The notes below the pieces were generated by a model that ran no database searches, was not told the origin of the DNA, and worked only from the letters and a program-made list of their open reading frames with translations. Both the position numbers and the translations under genes were made by a program. This document shows positions 35,623 through 56,667 of a DNA stretch of 64,000 bases, piece after piece. The stretch is taken from NCBI GenBank assembly GCA_963842525.1, contig CAWJGT010000007.1, forward strand, positions 1 to 64,000. Reading direction: 5' to 3'. Every line of letters begins with the position of its first letter. Within the stretch, counting starts at the first letter, position 1. This stretch comes from an uncultured Holophagales bacterium. GTDB lineage: Bacteria; Acidobacteriota; Thermoanaerobaculia; Multivoradales; UBA5704.

Positions 35623-36171
35623 TTACTTGAGCAGAAGAATCCCGCCGCCTAGGAAAACAATGAGCATTAGGTAAGCAAGAGCTGCAATCCCGGCAACGCC
35701 AAGAAGTCGGGTAAGCAATGACCACTGTTCCCTGCGGGCGACTGAAAATGCAGCCGCAGCGAAGCCGGCGCCGATACCGGCTGGCACAACACCACCCAGC
35801 GTAAGGATAGGAATGCCCAAGGGTAGCAGACAGGGCACAGTTAAGAACCAGGGCATTGTATAGTTGGAGTCAAGAGGCTGGGCGCCCGAGTCAGCGATGA
35901 AGGCCGTGATGTCTTTCGCCAGGCGGTCGGTATACGCCGCAAATTTCTTGACCGTTAGGTCGAAAGCTGAGCCATTGTGAGCGACTCGCACGCGATTCTC
36001 TTCAAGATAATGGATAGGTGTACCTCGAGGAATATGAAGTTTTGTGCTTCGTCCCTTTTTGAGATGTAAGCCGTCTTCGGCGAGCAGGCACCGGTAGACG
36101 CCGCGAGGCGGAAAGGGTACGTCACTCTTGACATCGACTTTGAACTTCAAGCAACCCTCCTTCTTGAACAC
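35623..36171 (-). CDS. lower-GC hypothetical membrane protein, cassette-like
   Basis: C-terminal TM helices; GTG start overlaps a GTTAGGT core site. Confidence 0.6.
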
Positions 36172-36188
36172 CTAACGAGACTGAGCGG

Positions 36189-36338
36189 AGGTCTTCAGCT
36201 TTTCTCAAGCAGTTCGCGGTACTCGGCGAGGCTCAGTATCACGGCCACAGGCCTACCATCCCGGATCACGATCTCGGGTGAGGTTGAGTTGTTCTCCATA
36301 GAAACCACCTCCCAAGCGAGTCTACCAGGGTTCTTGGG
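36189..36338 (-). pseudogene. truncated antitoxin copy with its upstream region (150-bp repeat of 56512-56660)
   Basis: MENNSTSPEIVIRDGRPVAVILSLAEYRELLEK and upstream DNA nearly identical to the intact gene at 56418-56621. Confidence 0.88.
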
Positions 36339-36361
36339 CATGCCGCGCGTGGCACTGCCAG

Positions 36362-36520
36362 GCACTTCTTGACGGCGGTGCCCTTGGACCCGGGGCCGCC
36401 GTCCTTTCTCACCTTCTCAATTGTCAAAGAGCCGGGCGCTCCGCCAGCATCGCGGGAATCGCCTTGCGGCGGTGATCCCGATCTCTCGGTCGATCGGCAT
36501 CATCACACCTTCTTCAATAT
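36362..36520 (-). ncRNA. putative structured RNA with GNRA hairpin, boxA-like motif and 3' hairpin
   Basis: Minus strand: CGCC-GCAA-GGCG stem-loop, GCTCTTTGACAA, GACGGCGG...CCGCCGTC hairpin; TTGACT-17-CAGGCT upstream. Confidence 0.35.
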
Positions 36521-36657
36521 GCGGTAGCCTGCTACGCTCGACGGCCGAAGTCAAACGAGGCCTTGACATCGCCATGCACGTCGTACAGACTATGCGCACT
36601 CCGTCGCCACTTCCGGCGCTGGATGTCCGAGCCCTCGGGCTCAAGAAGGAGAAGGAA

Positions 36658-37016
36658 ATGGCTGAAGCAACCTATGCAGGAAAACTGGGCGCACTGGCGC
36701 GGTTCATCGCCGCTCTGCTTGCCATGTGTCCGAGCTCGTCCACCTGGACGGCATTCGTGTTCCGATCGAAGCGATCCTGGCCGAGGCCCAGGGCGTCACC
36801 CGGGAACAGGCCGTCCTCACCACCAGCCGGCAGGAGGCGAGCCAGCGCATCCGGGCGCTGCTCATCGAAGGCGACCGGCTGCTGACCGCGGCGAGCAAGA
36901 TCCTCCAGGAGCACTATGGCCTGCAGTCGGAAAAGCTCGCGGAGCTCCACCTGCAGCCCTTCCGCCAGCGCCACCACCGCGATCCCCACGGCCGATCCGC
37001 AGCAGCTCTGCTCTGA
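36658..37016 (+). CDS. small alpha-helical protein, frameshifted near 36724
   Basis: AAGGAG RBS region and TTGACA-17-CAGACT promoter; MAEATYAGKLG...ALLA joins SELVHLDG...QEHYGLQSEKLAELHLQPFR. Confidence 0.6.
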
Positions 37017-37130
37017 GGAGCGTAGCGGCCACGCTCCCCGTATTCCGCTCCCATCTTCGAACGCTCCCACCGCGCCAGCCCGCGCCACAGCCTCGCAGCA
37101 TCCTCTGCAGATCGATGCAGCTACGCCGTC

Positions 37131-37517
37131 GTAAGCTTATCCGCCGCAGATACCGTTATCCGGGCCAGTGTAAGCTTATCCAGCACAGATAACACTATCC
37201 GCCGCAGATAAGCTTATCCAGCGCGGATACGCTTATCCGGCGTGGATAACACTATCTGCCGCGGATAAGCTTATCCAGGCCAGCGCAAGCTTATCCGGCA
37301 CAGATAACACTATCTGGCGTAGATAAGCTTATCCAGCGCGGATAAGCTTATCCGGCGTGGATAACACTATCTGCCGCGGATAAGCTTATCCAGGCCAGCG
37401 TAAGCTTATCCGGCGCAGATAACACTATCTGGCGTGGATAAGCTTATCTGGCGCAGATACCGTTATCCGGGCCAGTGTAAGCTTATCTGACGTGGATAAC
37501 ATTATCTGGCGCAGATA
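37131..37517. repeat. tandem array of ~20 palindromic 12-mers (GATAAGCTTATC and variants), period 19-20 bp
   Basis: GATAAGCTTATC / GATAACACTATC / GATACCGTTATC cores with 7-9 nt GC-rich linkers; 115-bp higher-order duplication starting at 37207 and 37322. Confidence 0.95.
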
Positions 37518-37597
37518 CGCCGTCATGCCGAGGCGGAATCTGTACACCTTCGCTGGTCTCTCACGCAGGCGATTTAGCGACGGCCAACGGTTGGGAG

Positions 37598-38086
37598 TCA
37601 GGCGCCATCGCGCATGCGCTTCGCCTGCCAGTTTCCGGAACGCGGGGGCCAGTCGACGCGCCAGCCGGAGTTGTTGGACGATGGCGATATCGGGGTGTGA
37701 CCACGAACCAGCCATGAACCCGGGCCAACGGATGAGGAGCGCACGGAAGTGCACCGTTTGGTGGGGCAGCGGATTCACTTCGATCTCGGTCCGTAGAGCC
37801 GATGAATCCATTCAGTGAGGGTGATCAGCTCGTTGTTGGATCGAATCCTCAGAACGGGTGAGTCTCTGCGGAAGTTGACCGAGATGAGGCCTGATGTGCC
37901 TTCGAGTTGGCCAGGCTCCGGAAACGCAAGAGGCCCCCTCTCGTAAAGCTCGCCGTGAACCCGACCGTTCCCGGTCTCTTGGAGGTGCATGCGGAAGTGC
38001 ACTCTGTCCGGTTCCCGCGAATGCTCAGGCCGTTCGTCAAAGGGATATTCATAGTACCCCTCCCAGGTGCCAGTGATCTGAAACAT
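37598..38086 (-). pseudogene. cassette-like hypothetical gene, frameshifted
   Basis: MFQITGTWEGYYEY... breaks near 37800 and continues in another frame; flanked by attC-like remnants. Confidence 0.45.
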
Positions 38087-38102
38087 CGTTGGGTAGATTA
38101 TA

Positions 38103-38168
38103 GACGTACGACGTGGATGCCGTTCGGCGGTGGCGCCAGCCGATCGCTGCAATGGCCGGGTTGGGGGC
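38103..38168 (-). mobile_element. degenerate attC-like site
   Basis: Minus strand CCCCAAC-CCGGC-CATTGCAGCG...CCGCCGAAC-GGCATCCAC-GTCGTAC resembles RYYYAAC-N5-GTTGCAGCGG...CCGCTGAAC-N6-GTTRRRY. Confidence 0.5.
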
Positions 38169-38179
38169 TATGGGCTATC

Positions 38180-39052
38180 CTATGCCCTCTCTTCGTAGTC
38201 GTCCGACACAGAGGCCCGAAATACCTTGAGAATCTCTTTCTCTGTACGATCGCATACGCCCGCTAGTTCACCGCACGAGGCCTCATTGGCAACGCTGAAA
38301 GCAATGTACTCTTTAAGGGTACGCAGGACTTCAAGTGAGACCACAGCCAAGTAGTTCACATGAGGTTGTACGTTGTTGTCTCGAATTTCAAACGTACCGC
38401 CATCAACTTCAAGATAGTGAAACAGGAGATCGGTCCAGCTGCCATGTATCGTATGAGACCCCATCGACTGAATGGCTATATACCCCTCCGGCGGAAGGTC
38501 CAGATCTCGGCAAATAGAGAAGAAGTCATGCAACGGCTTGCTTGAGCGGACTTCGTCCTCGGTCATTCCTGCGAGTTCGATGCACTGAGCTATGGACTTA
38601 AGCATGCGGTCTTCAACTATCCAATCTCGCCCTCCGCGGTCTGTAATTCGGGATTTAACTTGATCGTGAAGCCTCAGGTCCGCACGTAGCCCATCCGCCA
38701 TGTAACGCTTGAAGAGTCCCGGCTCGTTACGCTTCATTAGCCAGCAGGCCTTGATTGCCGACTCACAAATGCACCGAGTAAGAGCGGCAATCACTTCTCC
38801 ATGCTTCCGCTCCGCCGCGAGCTTTACTGCTGCTAAGATCAGGCGGCTGCACCTGTTGATGAGTCCCCGAATCACGGCATACTCAAGCTCCGGGTGTTCG
38901 ATAACACCAGGAGTTCTGGGGCCTATGGTGCTCAAATGAATGGCAAGCAACCCCACATGGCGACACAACTCAAACGTCGGACGAAGCCAGTCTCTATCCG
39001 AAGAGAACCGGTCCCATTCGGAATCTTCAAACCTTGGCGGCTCTGGCAGCAT
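38180..39052 (-). CDS. DUF5677-like (HEPN-related) protein, lower GC
   Basis: LTRCICESAIKACWL and Y...S..IHGSW motifs. Confidence 0.6.
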   Translation of the reverse strand: MLPEPPRFEDSEWDRFSSDRDWLRPTFELCRHVGLLAIHLSTIGPRTPGVIEHPELEYAVIRGLINRCSRLILAAVKLAAERKHGEVIAALTRCICESAIKACWLMKRNEPGLFKRYMADGLRADLRLHDQVKSRITDRGGRDWIVEDRMLKSIAQCIELAGMTEDEVRSSKPLHDFFSICRDLDLPPEGYIAIQSMGSHTIHGSWTDLLFHYLEVDGGTFEIRDNNVQPHVNYLAVVSLEVLRTLKEYIAFSVANEASCGELAGVCDRTEKEILKVFRASVSDDYEERA

Positions 39053-39130
39053 CTGGCTTCCCTTATGGCGCCCAATCCTGACTCACATATTCGCCGACAC
39101 CGTGCCCACAGGCGTATACGGCAGCCGCCC

Positions 39131-39361
39131 TCAGCGCCGCCGCCGCGCCGCCTTGACCGCGGCCCGACCGAGCGCCGCCGGGGTGGCATGGAACGCCGTC
39201 TCCATTCCCTTCCTGGTCGCCGGCGTCTGCATGCGCTCGAGCAGGATCACCTGTTCCCGCCCTAAGCTTTCCACAACCACCACGCTTCCGTGCTGAACCT
39301 TGTCCACAACCTCCTGGGGTTTCCTGGCAAGGTCGGGTTGGGAGATCGTGGTCCGGGTCAT
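39131..39361 (-). pseudogene. chimeric Phd-like antitoxin fragment
   Basis: N-half VVESLGREQVILLE matches VVESSGREQVILLE near 56940-56980; C-half RMQTP..GM..AF.A.PA.LGRAA resembles another antitoxin family. Confidence 0.5.
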
Positions 39362-39555
39362 TGGATTGTCCTCGGACCATAGTCTGGCCGAGCGACGCCA
39401 CCGCCGGGGGGTTCCTCCGGGTAGGGGAAATCCGGCGCGCTTCCAGCGAGGTCCAGGAACTCCTGGCTCCATCTCCGGCCCGCAGGTTCGAGGACGACCC
39501 TCTCGCCTTCGCGCGAGATCAATCCGGCCTTGAACAGCTTCGCTCTCTGTGACAT
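39358..39555 (-). pseudogene. internally deleted VapB (AbrB-type) antitoxin
   Basis: GAGGAG RBS; MSQRAKLFKAG joined directly to LISREGERVVLEP, so the usual SQAVRLPK segment is missing; no toxin follows. Confidence 0.6.
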
Positions 39556-39693
39556 GGCACTCCTCCTCGGCATAAAGTACCAGATTCTGGAGTCCTCGAC
39601 CCCGTTTCCCGGTTGAGCGCCCATGCTATGATCCTGAGCCGTGTAGCAGGCTATGAAGCTGACTTCATGTTTCTCTCGATAGAGTCGATTCCC

Positions 39694-39940
39694 ATGCCGA
39701 AGATCATCGGTGTCACCGACCTTCAGCGACGGTTCAAGGCGGTGCTCCACGAGGTGGCCGAGGAGCATGTTTCGTACGTTTTGATCCGGGGAAGCCAGCC
39801 GCGGGCGGCCCTGATTCCCTACGAGGAGTTCCTCCGGTATCAGGAGCTCACGGAAGGCGATGTCCTCCGGCGCTTCGGGCGCCTTCGTGCGCGGATGGCC
39901 GAAGCCAGCGCGAGCCTCAGTGAGGACGAAGTGGCTGCTG
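39694..39940 (+). pseudogene. Phd/YefM antitoxin, 3' end lost, no toxin partner
   Basis: IIGVTDLQRRFKAVLHEV...PRAALIPYEEF; the ORF then runs into non-coding-looking DNA. Confidence 0.65.
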
Positions 39941-40008
39941 GGCGGCGGCACGGGTGGAGCTGGAAGCTTGATCCGAGCTGTCGCTCGATACCTCGATCGG
40001 GGTACTTG

Positions 40009-40050
40009 TTACCCAATTCTTTTACCCAATTCCACCGTTGTTACCCAATT
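40009..40050. repeat. three direct repeats of TTACCCAATT
   Basis: Exact copies at 40009, 40022 and 40041. Confidence 0.85.
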
Positions 40051-40206
40051 GCGGCTGCTGGCGCCCTCTTCACGCACCTCTCTGGGAGCAGCGAGACCGG
40101 AAAAGGCCCTCTGCAAGAGATCCGGTCGCCTGATCTGCGCAAAGTTGTTCAGGACCGTCGTGTCGGCGGCGTTCAACCCGGGGAGGTAGGGTAGGCTTGT
40201 CCGCGC

Positions 40207-56425: not shown

Positions 56426-56621
56426 CCTGGGAGCGCTCGGCAAGGAAGTCGTCGAGGCGCCGGAACTCCAGTGGCTTCTGGCGCATCTCCTCCAGGCACT
56501 TCAGCGCCTCCAGGTCTTCAGCTTTCTCAAGCAACTCGCGGTACTCGGCGAGGCTCAGTATCACGGCCACCGGCCTACCATCCCGAAGCACGATCTCGGG
56601 CGAGGTTGAGCTGTTCTCCAT
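56418..56621 (-). CDS. Phd-like antitoxin
   Basis: DGRPVAVILSLAEYRELLE..EDLE; GGAGG RBS; overlaps relE. Confidence 0.85.
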   Translation of the reverse strand: MENSSTSPEIVLRDGRPVAVILSLAEYRELLEKAEDLEALKCLEEMRQKPLEFRRLDDFLAERSQDV

Positions 56622-56667
56622 AGAAACTACCTCCCAAGCGAGTCTACCAGGGTTCTTGGGAGCCCGG

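Follow-up and report, generated by a model that had tools for sequence, protein, structure and literature searches.

Plasmid partition centromeres are built of tandem repeats: sopC, the partner of SopB in F, has 12 repeats of 43 bp, and parC, the partner of ParR in R1 and pSK41, has repeats of 11 or 20 bp. At sopC and at P1 parS, the array lies downstream of the gene for the binding protein. Stepped binding is also known for ArgR, whose hexamers bind 18-bp palindromic boxes placed 2-3 bp apart, giving a 20-21-bp step; known ArgR operators have one to three boxes, and ArgR acts as an architectural factor at cer. Proteins of the H-NS type join an N-terminal antiparallel coiled-coil oligomeriser to a basic Q/RGR DNA-binding motif. 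Here we analyze a 64,000-nucleotide stretch from an uncultured Holophagales bacterium (phylum Acidobacteriota; assembly GCA_963842525.1, contig CAWJGT010000007.1, positions 1 to 64,000; hereafter the window), in which an array of 20 palindromic units follows a gene for a small coiled-coil protein. The locus almost certainly belongs to a family of modules in which such a gene, a terminator, and an array follow one another, and by analogy the module would seem to work most like a centromere-type array beside its binding-protein gene. A literature search at title and abstract level found no description of this module.

The likeness to partition centromeres lies in phased, often dyad-symmetric tandem sites beside the gene of a small oligomerising protein, and in the product expected, a nucleoprotein filament on one face of the DNA. 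Unlike at partition loci, no ParA, ParM, or TubZ was found among 10 open reading frames (ORFs) of the window or among 130 neighboring ORFs of 80 related loci, and the module protein, all-helical in its predicted structure, has no recognized ParB, ribbon-helix-helix, or winged helix-turn-helix fold. The module also differs in its place on the chromosome, in its numbers (1-44 matches to the gene per genome and about 200 arrays in the present one), and in having a terminator between gene and array.

The window array consists of 20 phased 12-mer units, spaced by 19 bp (16 times) or 20 bp (four times). Tandem Repeats Finder (TRF) reports a period of 19 bp in 20.1 copies, with higher-order periods of 58, 77, and 115 bp, the last in 2.9 copies at 89% match. 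The cores read GATAAGCTTATC in six units, GATAACACTATC in five with GATAACATTATC in one, and YGTAAGCTTATC in four with CGCAAGCTTATC in one; the remaining cores are GATACCGTTATC (two) and GATACGCTTATC (one). Linkers are 7-8 nt long and recur, CGGCGCA 14 times and TGGCGCA 11 times, with others besides. With up to three mismatches, GATAAGCTTATC is matched 31 times in the window against 7.1 expected (100 shuffles reach 15 at most), and 20 of the 31 matches lie in phase within the array. AAGCTT occurs at 14 sites in the window, 6.1 being expected, and 11 of these are inside the array. The gap between the TGA of the small gene (37014-37016) and the first unit is 114 bp, and the surrounding 36001-38000 segment has a GC content of 0.596 compared with about 0.67 nearby. 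Thus a preliminary description made from the letters alone, which had reported about 20 palindromic units at a 19-20-bp period, about eleven AAGCTT sites, and a 115-bp duplication in an AT-richer island beginning some 115 bp past a small gene, agrees with these counts; its three recurring core variants are a fair summary, and its remark that the linkers are too short for CRISPR spacers is correct. A CRISPR array, which needs 23-50-bp repeats and unique spacers, was rejected as a candidate: here the period is 19-20 bp and 7-8-nt linkers recur.

Related arrays occur throughout the 9.95-Mb genome (contigs are designated Cn, with prefix G000, and module loci Lnnn). Exact GATAAGCTTATC is present 72 times, 71 times within arrays and once as a singleton; the reversed control gave no occurrence. 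In all, 18 GATA-type arrays with 318 units were found, with spacings of 19 bp (207) and 20 bp (88). GATA and TATC are the conserved parts of the unit (T/A and T/A/T/C at 94-98%); the AAGCTT centre is kept at 64-82%, and the linker varies too. Ten of the 18 arrays sit behind a copy or fragment of the small gene, five of these gene-bearing copies being apparently intact, and three more sit behind an internally deleted derivative of the gene. The window segment from 36371 to the gene end has homologs of 76-88% nucleotide identity beside nine other GATA-type arrays, which bears out the earlier proposal that gene region and array form one traveling unit. Many genes of these units are decayed, and the higher-order structure of the arrays varies. 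The flank downstream of the window array is unique, unlike the upstream part; four to five sister copies have a common tail of about 150 bp past the array, which the window copy lacks. No terminal repeats or target duplications of the unit were recognized by eye.

The conservation pattern bears on a decoy or titration function, in which the array would draw off a host factor reading AAGCTT or TTATCC, either a HindIII-type restriction/modification enzyme or DnaA (as at datA). The 11 AAGCTT sites and four sites with eight of nine matches to TTATCCACA, none of them perfect, speak for such a function. Within the unit, however, conservation is lowest at the AAGCTT centre, and sister modules use unrelated units. 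The excess of DnaA-box-like sites is weak (seven in the window against 2.4 expected; one of 100 shuffles attains seven), and cumulative GC skew declines monotonically across the window, with no turn. We consider this explanation barely credible, and the restriction/methylase decoy of the preliminary description is not supported. An oriC/datA cluster of DnaA boxes was rejected on the same four imperfect boxes and monotonic skew.

The preliminary description had suggested a tandem-repeat scan around homologs of the small protein. We used 80 homolog loci from other genomes and scored arrays of at least 60 bp starting within 700 bp of the gene. An array was found downstream in 62 of the 80 loci and upstream in none, typically 120-250 bp behind the gene and up to 862 bp long. 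Most of the 32 paralog loci of the present genome are likewise followed by an array with a unit sequence of its own. With nine sister gene-array copies and 62 relatives' loci carrying an array, the window array is therefore neither unique to its locus nor unlinked to the gene family. The window locus has three attributes of the module: an upstream homolog on the same strand, a gap of 114 bp (norm range 60-550), and a 19-20-bp period.

Array statistics were compiled for 80 modules, of which 62 belong to relatives and 18 to this genome. Six arrays have a period of 19 bp, 47 of 20 bp, 25 of 21 bp, and two of another value, so that 78 of the 80 keep 19-21 bp although their unit sequences are unrelated. 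Dyad symmetry exceeds that of all 20 column-permuted controls in 59 arrays. Strand bias is absent, GC skew being positive in 31/80 arrays and AT skew in 37/80. Arrays diverge together with the proteins beside them: at 40-50% protein identity, 0.6% of pairs have arrays with shared 9-mers, and this rises to 49% at 70-80% identity, 89% at 80-90%, and seven of seven pairs above 90%.

The first 80 nt after the stop codon fold with z < -2 relative to shuffles in 50 of 61 gaps, and the structure is a GC hairpin followed by a T-run (CTTTTTT in 39/61). The arrays therefore lie behind the gene's terminator. At the potential linker stem of GATA-type arrays, the pair counts (CG 58, CA 41, TG 38, TA 32) agree with the product of the marginals; each position varies without regard to the other, and G-T is no rarer or commoner than C-A. 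The absence of strand bias, the uncorrelated linker pairs, the terminator, and a period of two helical turns together point to double-stranded DNA, not to RNA or a hairpin. An array acting as RNA, as a separate multi-hairpin transcript or as a precursor of 19-21-nt units bound by the small protein, is thus very improbable. In its favor, alternating short hairpins can be drawn from the units, the small protein has a basic character, and the gene's leader is a structured RNA; yet the linker stem has neither compensatory covariation nor G-U asymmetry, the GATA/TATC stem would amount to four A-U-rich pairs, and the period fits two turns of B-DNA rather than any RNA constraint. The array has no Rfam match; no Rfam family reaches its gathering score anywhere in the window, and an E-value search of 12 related loci returned none in leaders or arrays. 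The multi-hairpin RNA proposed earlier is not supported. Acido-Lenti-1 RNA (RF01687) was matched near modules, not within them, at L013:3505-3551, L068:1525-1571, and L009:2659-2704, two of the matches being above the gathering score.

The small protein belongs to a large family without a name. An intact copy, P0001 (124 aa, with 17 K/R and 12 D/E by our count), matches no Pfam or NCBIfam family; it gives only sub-threshold coiled-coil matches and a weak, below cut-off match to Histone_HNS_N (E 0.065). A word-indexed search returned 660 homologs at E ≤ 0.001, the named ones being hypothetical proteins from Thermoanaerobaculia/Acidobacteria metagenome-assembled genomes, and a profile search returned 1046 protein clusters at 50% identity, of which the top 150 are all short single-domain proteins. 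Within the GTDB family of the window, 71 of 81 genomes and 10 of 11 genera have this protein family, with 1-44 matches per genome (32-42 in the present genome); 117 genomes drawn from 15 further families of the class have none. Hence the module is restricted to a single family of soil Acidobacteriota. The most conserved segments are a central KQE and, near the C terminus, HYG..SEKLAEFG.QPFRGR, followed by a Pro/Glu-rich tail.

AlphaFold2 models P0001 (predicted local distance difference test [pLDDT] 83.9) as helices 6-22, 28-87 (a single helix of 60 residues), and 92-97 with a disordered tail and no strand. For the homodimer, the ipSAE score is 0.62 against 0.00 for the best control; in the calibration of the tool, 20 of 30 proteins solved as one-chain pairs and one of 23 solved as single chains reached the mark. 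At least 94% of contacts recur between runs, the partner pLDDT is 85 or higher, and the contacts (72-37, 40-68, 54-54) run antiparallel. These predictions support an antiparallel coiled-coil dimer, which would bring the conserved loop together with the conserved C-terminal motif at either end of the rod. Foldseek found nothing in the PDB at E ≤ 0.001; the VIA wide search gave generic helical arrangements (best Z 6.9), and ESM Atlas gave unnamed Acidobacteriota clusters only, with DUF6261 (0.77) as a weak lead.

From these features we infer that the array may serve as a docking track on double-stranded DNA for a symmetric oligomerising protein, a proposal that in our judgement stands about an equal chance of being right or wrong. 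The module would run from a promoter through a structured leader, a gene encoding a small, basic, all-helical protein of about 125 aa, and an intrinsic terminator to the 19-21-bp array, which would offer a DNA-binding protein, symmetric and oligomerising, one place to dock in every two turns of the helix. The module's own protein is the likeliest candidate for this role, by way of the predicted antiparallel dimer with a conserved head at each end. The cis gene of the window is dead, so binding there would depend on protein supplied in trans by sister copies that look intact (five of the ten gene-bearing ones). Among the three readings put forward in the preliminary description, a putative multimeric binding platform fits best. 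The anatomy, the linkage, the constant period, the lack of RNA-type signals, and the joint divergence of arrays and proteins are observed; that a protein binds, which protein does so, and what a bound array would do are inferred.

Several observations weigh against the docking-track proposal. Searches of Pfam, NCBIfam, and fold databases recognized no DNA-binding fold in the small protein, and no sequence-reading element was identified in it. Its most conserved parts are the two heads, including QPFRGR, yet the arrays differ. Co-divergence of protein and array can also come from plain linkage. In 21 of 80 arrays the units repeat directly and dyad symmetry is lacking, which suits a symmetric dimer less well. 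Reading RGR as an AT-hook, with phasing of A-tracts, fails because A/T tracts of at least 4 nt number 0.32 per unit, as in shuffled arrays (the figure is below 0.2 in 41 of the 80). Scanned with TRF, the whole genome yields 301 arrays of at least 120 bp, of which 197 have a period of 19-22 or 38-43 bp, and 176 of these 197 have no small gene nearby. Finally, array family 2, with 31 arrays, is carried in an element of about 0.97 kb that has no gene and exists in seven or more copies of 95-98% identity (examples in Table 1).

The census equally bears on a selfish or neutral origin, in which satellite-like DNA would grow by slippage and unequal recombination and spread in non-autonomous elements, with the small gene hitch-hiking and the period a mark of ancestry or of the mode of expansion. 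By sequence, the 197 arrays form 49 families, and some of these, lacking a linked gene, keep this reading alive. The family 2 element, in which arms of 160 and 290 bp enclose a 21/63-bp array rich in GGTCCCGCGGGACC, fits it too, as does the multi-copy GATA-type unit with its decayed genes and the tail common to four or five copies. Against it, specific unit bases are held at 94-98% over 318 units while their neighbors drift, the 19-21-bp period persists in 78/80 arrays of unrelated sequence, and the order gene-terminator-array is kept in 62/80 loci across a bacterial family with diverse neighbors. A family gene lies within 900 bp in the right orientation at 21/197 arrays of the period class and at 2/104 arrays of other periods. 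In favor of the docking track, ten sequence families (92 arrays) have a gene-linked member, which fits one cis array plus dispersed cognate arrays per protein. No transposase is linked to the arrays. Of the 20 Y1_Tnp matches in the genome (IS200/IS605 or RAYT type), three stand in a row at C34:527792-531498; five of the 197 arrays lie within 3 kb of a match, against 2.3 expected at random, and an array of at least 120 bp adjoins one of eight strong Y1 genes. We rate a selfish or neutral origin as unlikely.

The same numbers separate the arrays from repetitive extragenic palindromic sequences and bacterial interspersed mosaic elements (REP/BIME) with their REP-associated tyrosine transposases (RAYT). 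These also are short extragenic palindromes in alternating orientation, clustered behind gene 3' ends and forming dispersed sequence families. Module units, unlike them, are 19-21 bp long and stand in long regular arrays (71 of 72 exact GATAAGCTTATC sites), with no evident GTAG/CGTC head. REP/BIME with RAYT was rejected, there being no Y1 enrichment and nearly no singleton sites. Separately, ten arrays of the 21/42-bp class lie directly behind paralogs that by eye resemble a zinc-finger anti-sigma factor with tetratricopeptide repeats (C11:141987, C22:16556, C25:64036, C33:579, and six more); these genes may be a second family with a preferred array neighbor.

A different protein could be the reader. 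Under this alternative, an ArgR-like paralog rather than the small protein binds the arrays, and the small protein is a co-regulated partner or modulator. A full ArgR-like gene (PF01316 and PF02863) flanks 24 of the 80 related loci and one more is cut by a contig end; 22 of these 25 are divergent upstream at 175-310 bp and three lie behind the array. In the present genome, 3/30 modules have one. The present genome has six ArgR-like genes: a canonical one beside argG, one alone, three in gene-array or gene-only modules (C19:423926-424381, C3:1238060-1238536, and C32:139608-140120), and one, C24:152469-152921, that adjoins a 21-bp array where no small gene is present. Read by eye, the GDDT motif of the arginine pocket is GEDT or GENT in the three module-linked paralogs; C24 keeps DD. 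Over the 81 genomes of the GTDB family, the number of ArgR copies tracks that of small genes (Spearman 0.73, uncorrected for relatedness), and two or more ArgR genes are found in 0/10 genomes without a small gene and in 23/25 with at least 20. The window unit retains a truncated ArgR-like start, and the GATA unit has the 5+4+5 layout of an ARG box.

Other observations speak against ArgR. An ArgR-like neighbor is missing from 55/80 loci, and the six ArgR-like genes of this genome stand against 49 array families and 32-42 matches to the small gene. TQSSISRDL, the recognition helix, hardly varies although the arrays differ, and the arrays of most C32/C19-type triads (L011, L013, L015, L018, L022, L029, L031) have no dyad symmetry. 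Allowing two mismatches, no TGAAT-N4-ATTCA site occurs in 37130-37517, and seven occur in the window against 6.1 expected. In sum, ARG boxes and module arrays are alike in the 20-21-bp step, in the even-centred 5+4+5 palindrome of the GATA unit, and in the linkage of an ArgR-family gene to a quarter to a third of modules; they are unlike in that module arrays have 15-40 units, many not palindromic, and that the window array lacks TGAAT/ATTCA. The step of the window array is 19-20 bp. ArgR is, in our view, a serious candidate for the reader, yet an improbable one.

The docking-track proposal can be extended, more tentatively. Each of the 10-40 coiled-coil paralogs per genome might polymerise on its own two-turn-phased array family, in cis and at dispersed sites, with ArgR-like hexamers as partners of some, and the tracks might organise, mark, or bridge chromosomal sites. 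We hold this addressing system to be possible, with doubt. The module protein resembles the H-NS type in being small and basic, with a predicted antiparallel helical dimer, an RGR-containing C-terminal motif, and the weak Histone_HNS_N match. It differs from H-NS in lacking a folded C-terminal DNA-binding domain, in the A/T tracts of its arrays, which do not exceed composition, and in its dozens of paralogs, each tied to its own array type. Two further candidates were rejected. Arrays do not mark the boundaries of low-GC islands (GC 0.662 upstream and 0.660 downstream; downstream lower in 25/53 loci). Type III toxin-antitoxin loci of the ToxIN kind have 34-45-nt repeats upstream of, and co-transcribed with, an endoribonuclease toxin gene; here the array is downstream behind a terminator, with up to about 40 units of 19-21 bp, and the protein is a coiled coil.

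An alignment of the ten GATA-type copies gives the order of parts in the repeated unit: a GC-rich hairpin edge, a truncated ArgR-like start, a promoter-like site with TTGACA, a leader carrying hairpins and a strong ribosome-binding site, the gene, a terminator-like hairpin, and the array (Table 1). Window positions 36433-36530 are 82% identical in nucleotides to the 5' end of the C24 ArgR-like gene. A simple consensus scan did not call the promoter-like site, and simple promoter and terminator scans of the window unit and of the C25 copy gave nothing above chance. The leader is kept across 72 loci, and in its first hairpin, one or more double changes are seen at six of the seven pairs; the leader may act as RNA or as an operator on DNA. 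Its hairpin or palindrome TCCGGCGYC-N6-GRCGCCGGA is nearly invariant, and a second, covarying hairpin precedes the AAGGAG ribosome-binding site (for example L011:2387-2494). The upstream part, the RNA of the RNA-protein-array system named in the preliminary description, consists of a conserved promoter, a 5' leader, and the truncated ArgR-like start.

Compared with the intact C8 and C25 copies, the window gene has a 1-nt deletion after 36724 and a change of RGRK to RQRH, and has lost its ancestral stop; in tblastn, the frame 36726-37016 is 86% and 79% identical at the protein level to intact copies. Because the gene is frameshifted, the earlier wording of a repaired protein for binding assays is apt. 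After the gene, sister copies keep GGGGAGCGTG..CACGCTCCCC and then TTGTT; the corresponding window hairpin has 7 bp and a degraded T-run, and the terminator scan did not call it. Judged on its sequence, the window copy is a decayed member of the family: gene dead, ArgR-like gene truncated, and tail absent, with an array as well preserved as those of intact copies. In the C25 copy (L005), a short repeated element is inserted between stop codon and terminator (about 137376-137560), and it recurs at 94.5% identity just past the C7:144139 array (C7, about 144610-144740).

Table 1. Features of the window locus and its surroundings, with example copies of the gene-less element elsewhere in the genome
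Feature	Position	Strand	Remarks
Phd/YefM-like ORF	36195-36365	-	within lower-GC stretch
5' edge of repeated unit: GC-rich hairpin GACGGCGG...CCGCCGTC, then TTTCTC; terminator-like	36371-36410	+	homology to other copies starts at 36371; hairpin kept in 10-copy alignment
Truncated remnant of ArgR-like gene start (MMPIDRE...), divergent from small gene	36420-36503	-	nucleotide identity to C24 gene
Promoter-like site: TTGACA, 17 nt, CAGACT, then ATGCGCAC	36563-36591	+	inferred; layout also recognized by eye at related loci
5' leader: shortened first hairpin TTCCGGCG..; second hairpin GAGCCC-TC-GGGCTC (36629-36642); ribosome-binding site AAGGAG (36646-36651)	36600-36657	+	conserved leader
Small coiled-coil protein gene, here a pseudogene	36658-37016	+	alignment with intact C8 and C25 copies; tblastn
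Hairpin GGAGCGT-AGCGGCC-ACGCTCC, degraded form of the sister copies' terminator	37017-37037	+	conservation in sister copies
Array of 20 units, core GATA-N4-TATC, period 19-20 bp, higher-order 58/77/115 bp	37130-37517	.	motif; TRF and site counts
DUF5677 protein	38180-39052	-	within lower-GC stretch, with ORFs of unknown function
Phd/YefM-like ORF	39613-40194	+	within lower-GC stretch
Gene-less element of about 0.97 kb (example)	C20:97347-98311		
Gene-less element of about 0.97 kb (example)	C4:65907-66690		
Gene-less element of about 0.97 kb (example)	C9:202100-202876		
Gene-less element of about 0.97 kb (example)	C34:547627-548401		

The module copy lies in a lower-GC stretch of the window, 36000-40200 (GC 0.585-0.596), that carries small accessory genes. 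Same-genus genomes match the flanking housekeeping genes and not this stretch; when insertion synteny was followed in five of them, the flanks matched at about 80% but on separate contigs, and no empty site came to light. Positions 36189-36338, which cover most of the short Phd/YefM-like antitoxin ORF, are repeated with 94% identity 20 kb downstream, at 56512-56660.

For genome annotation, the module arrays explain assembly breaks at such loci in these genomes, and they call for caution against taking 21/42-bp arrays for coding repeats. If the arrays are docking tracks, they would represent a large unnamed class of protein-DNA modules (1046 protein clusters, up to 44 gene matches per genome, and about 200 arrays in the present genome), a natural set of orthogonal protein/array pairs, and a test case for how a repeat period of two helical turns stays constant while sequence drifts. 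If the addressing-system reading is true, the family would have a bacterial counterpart of satellite DNA with dedicated binding proteins.

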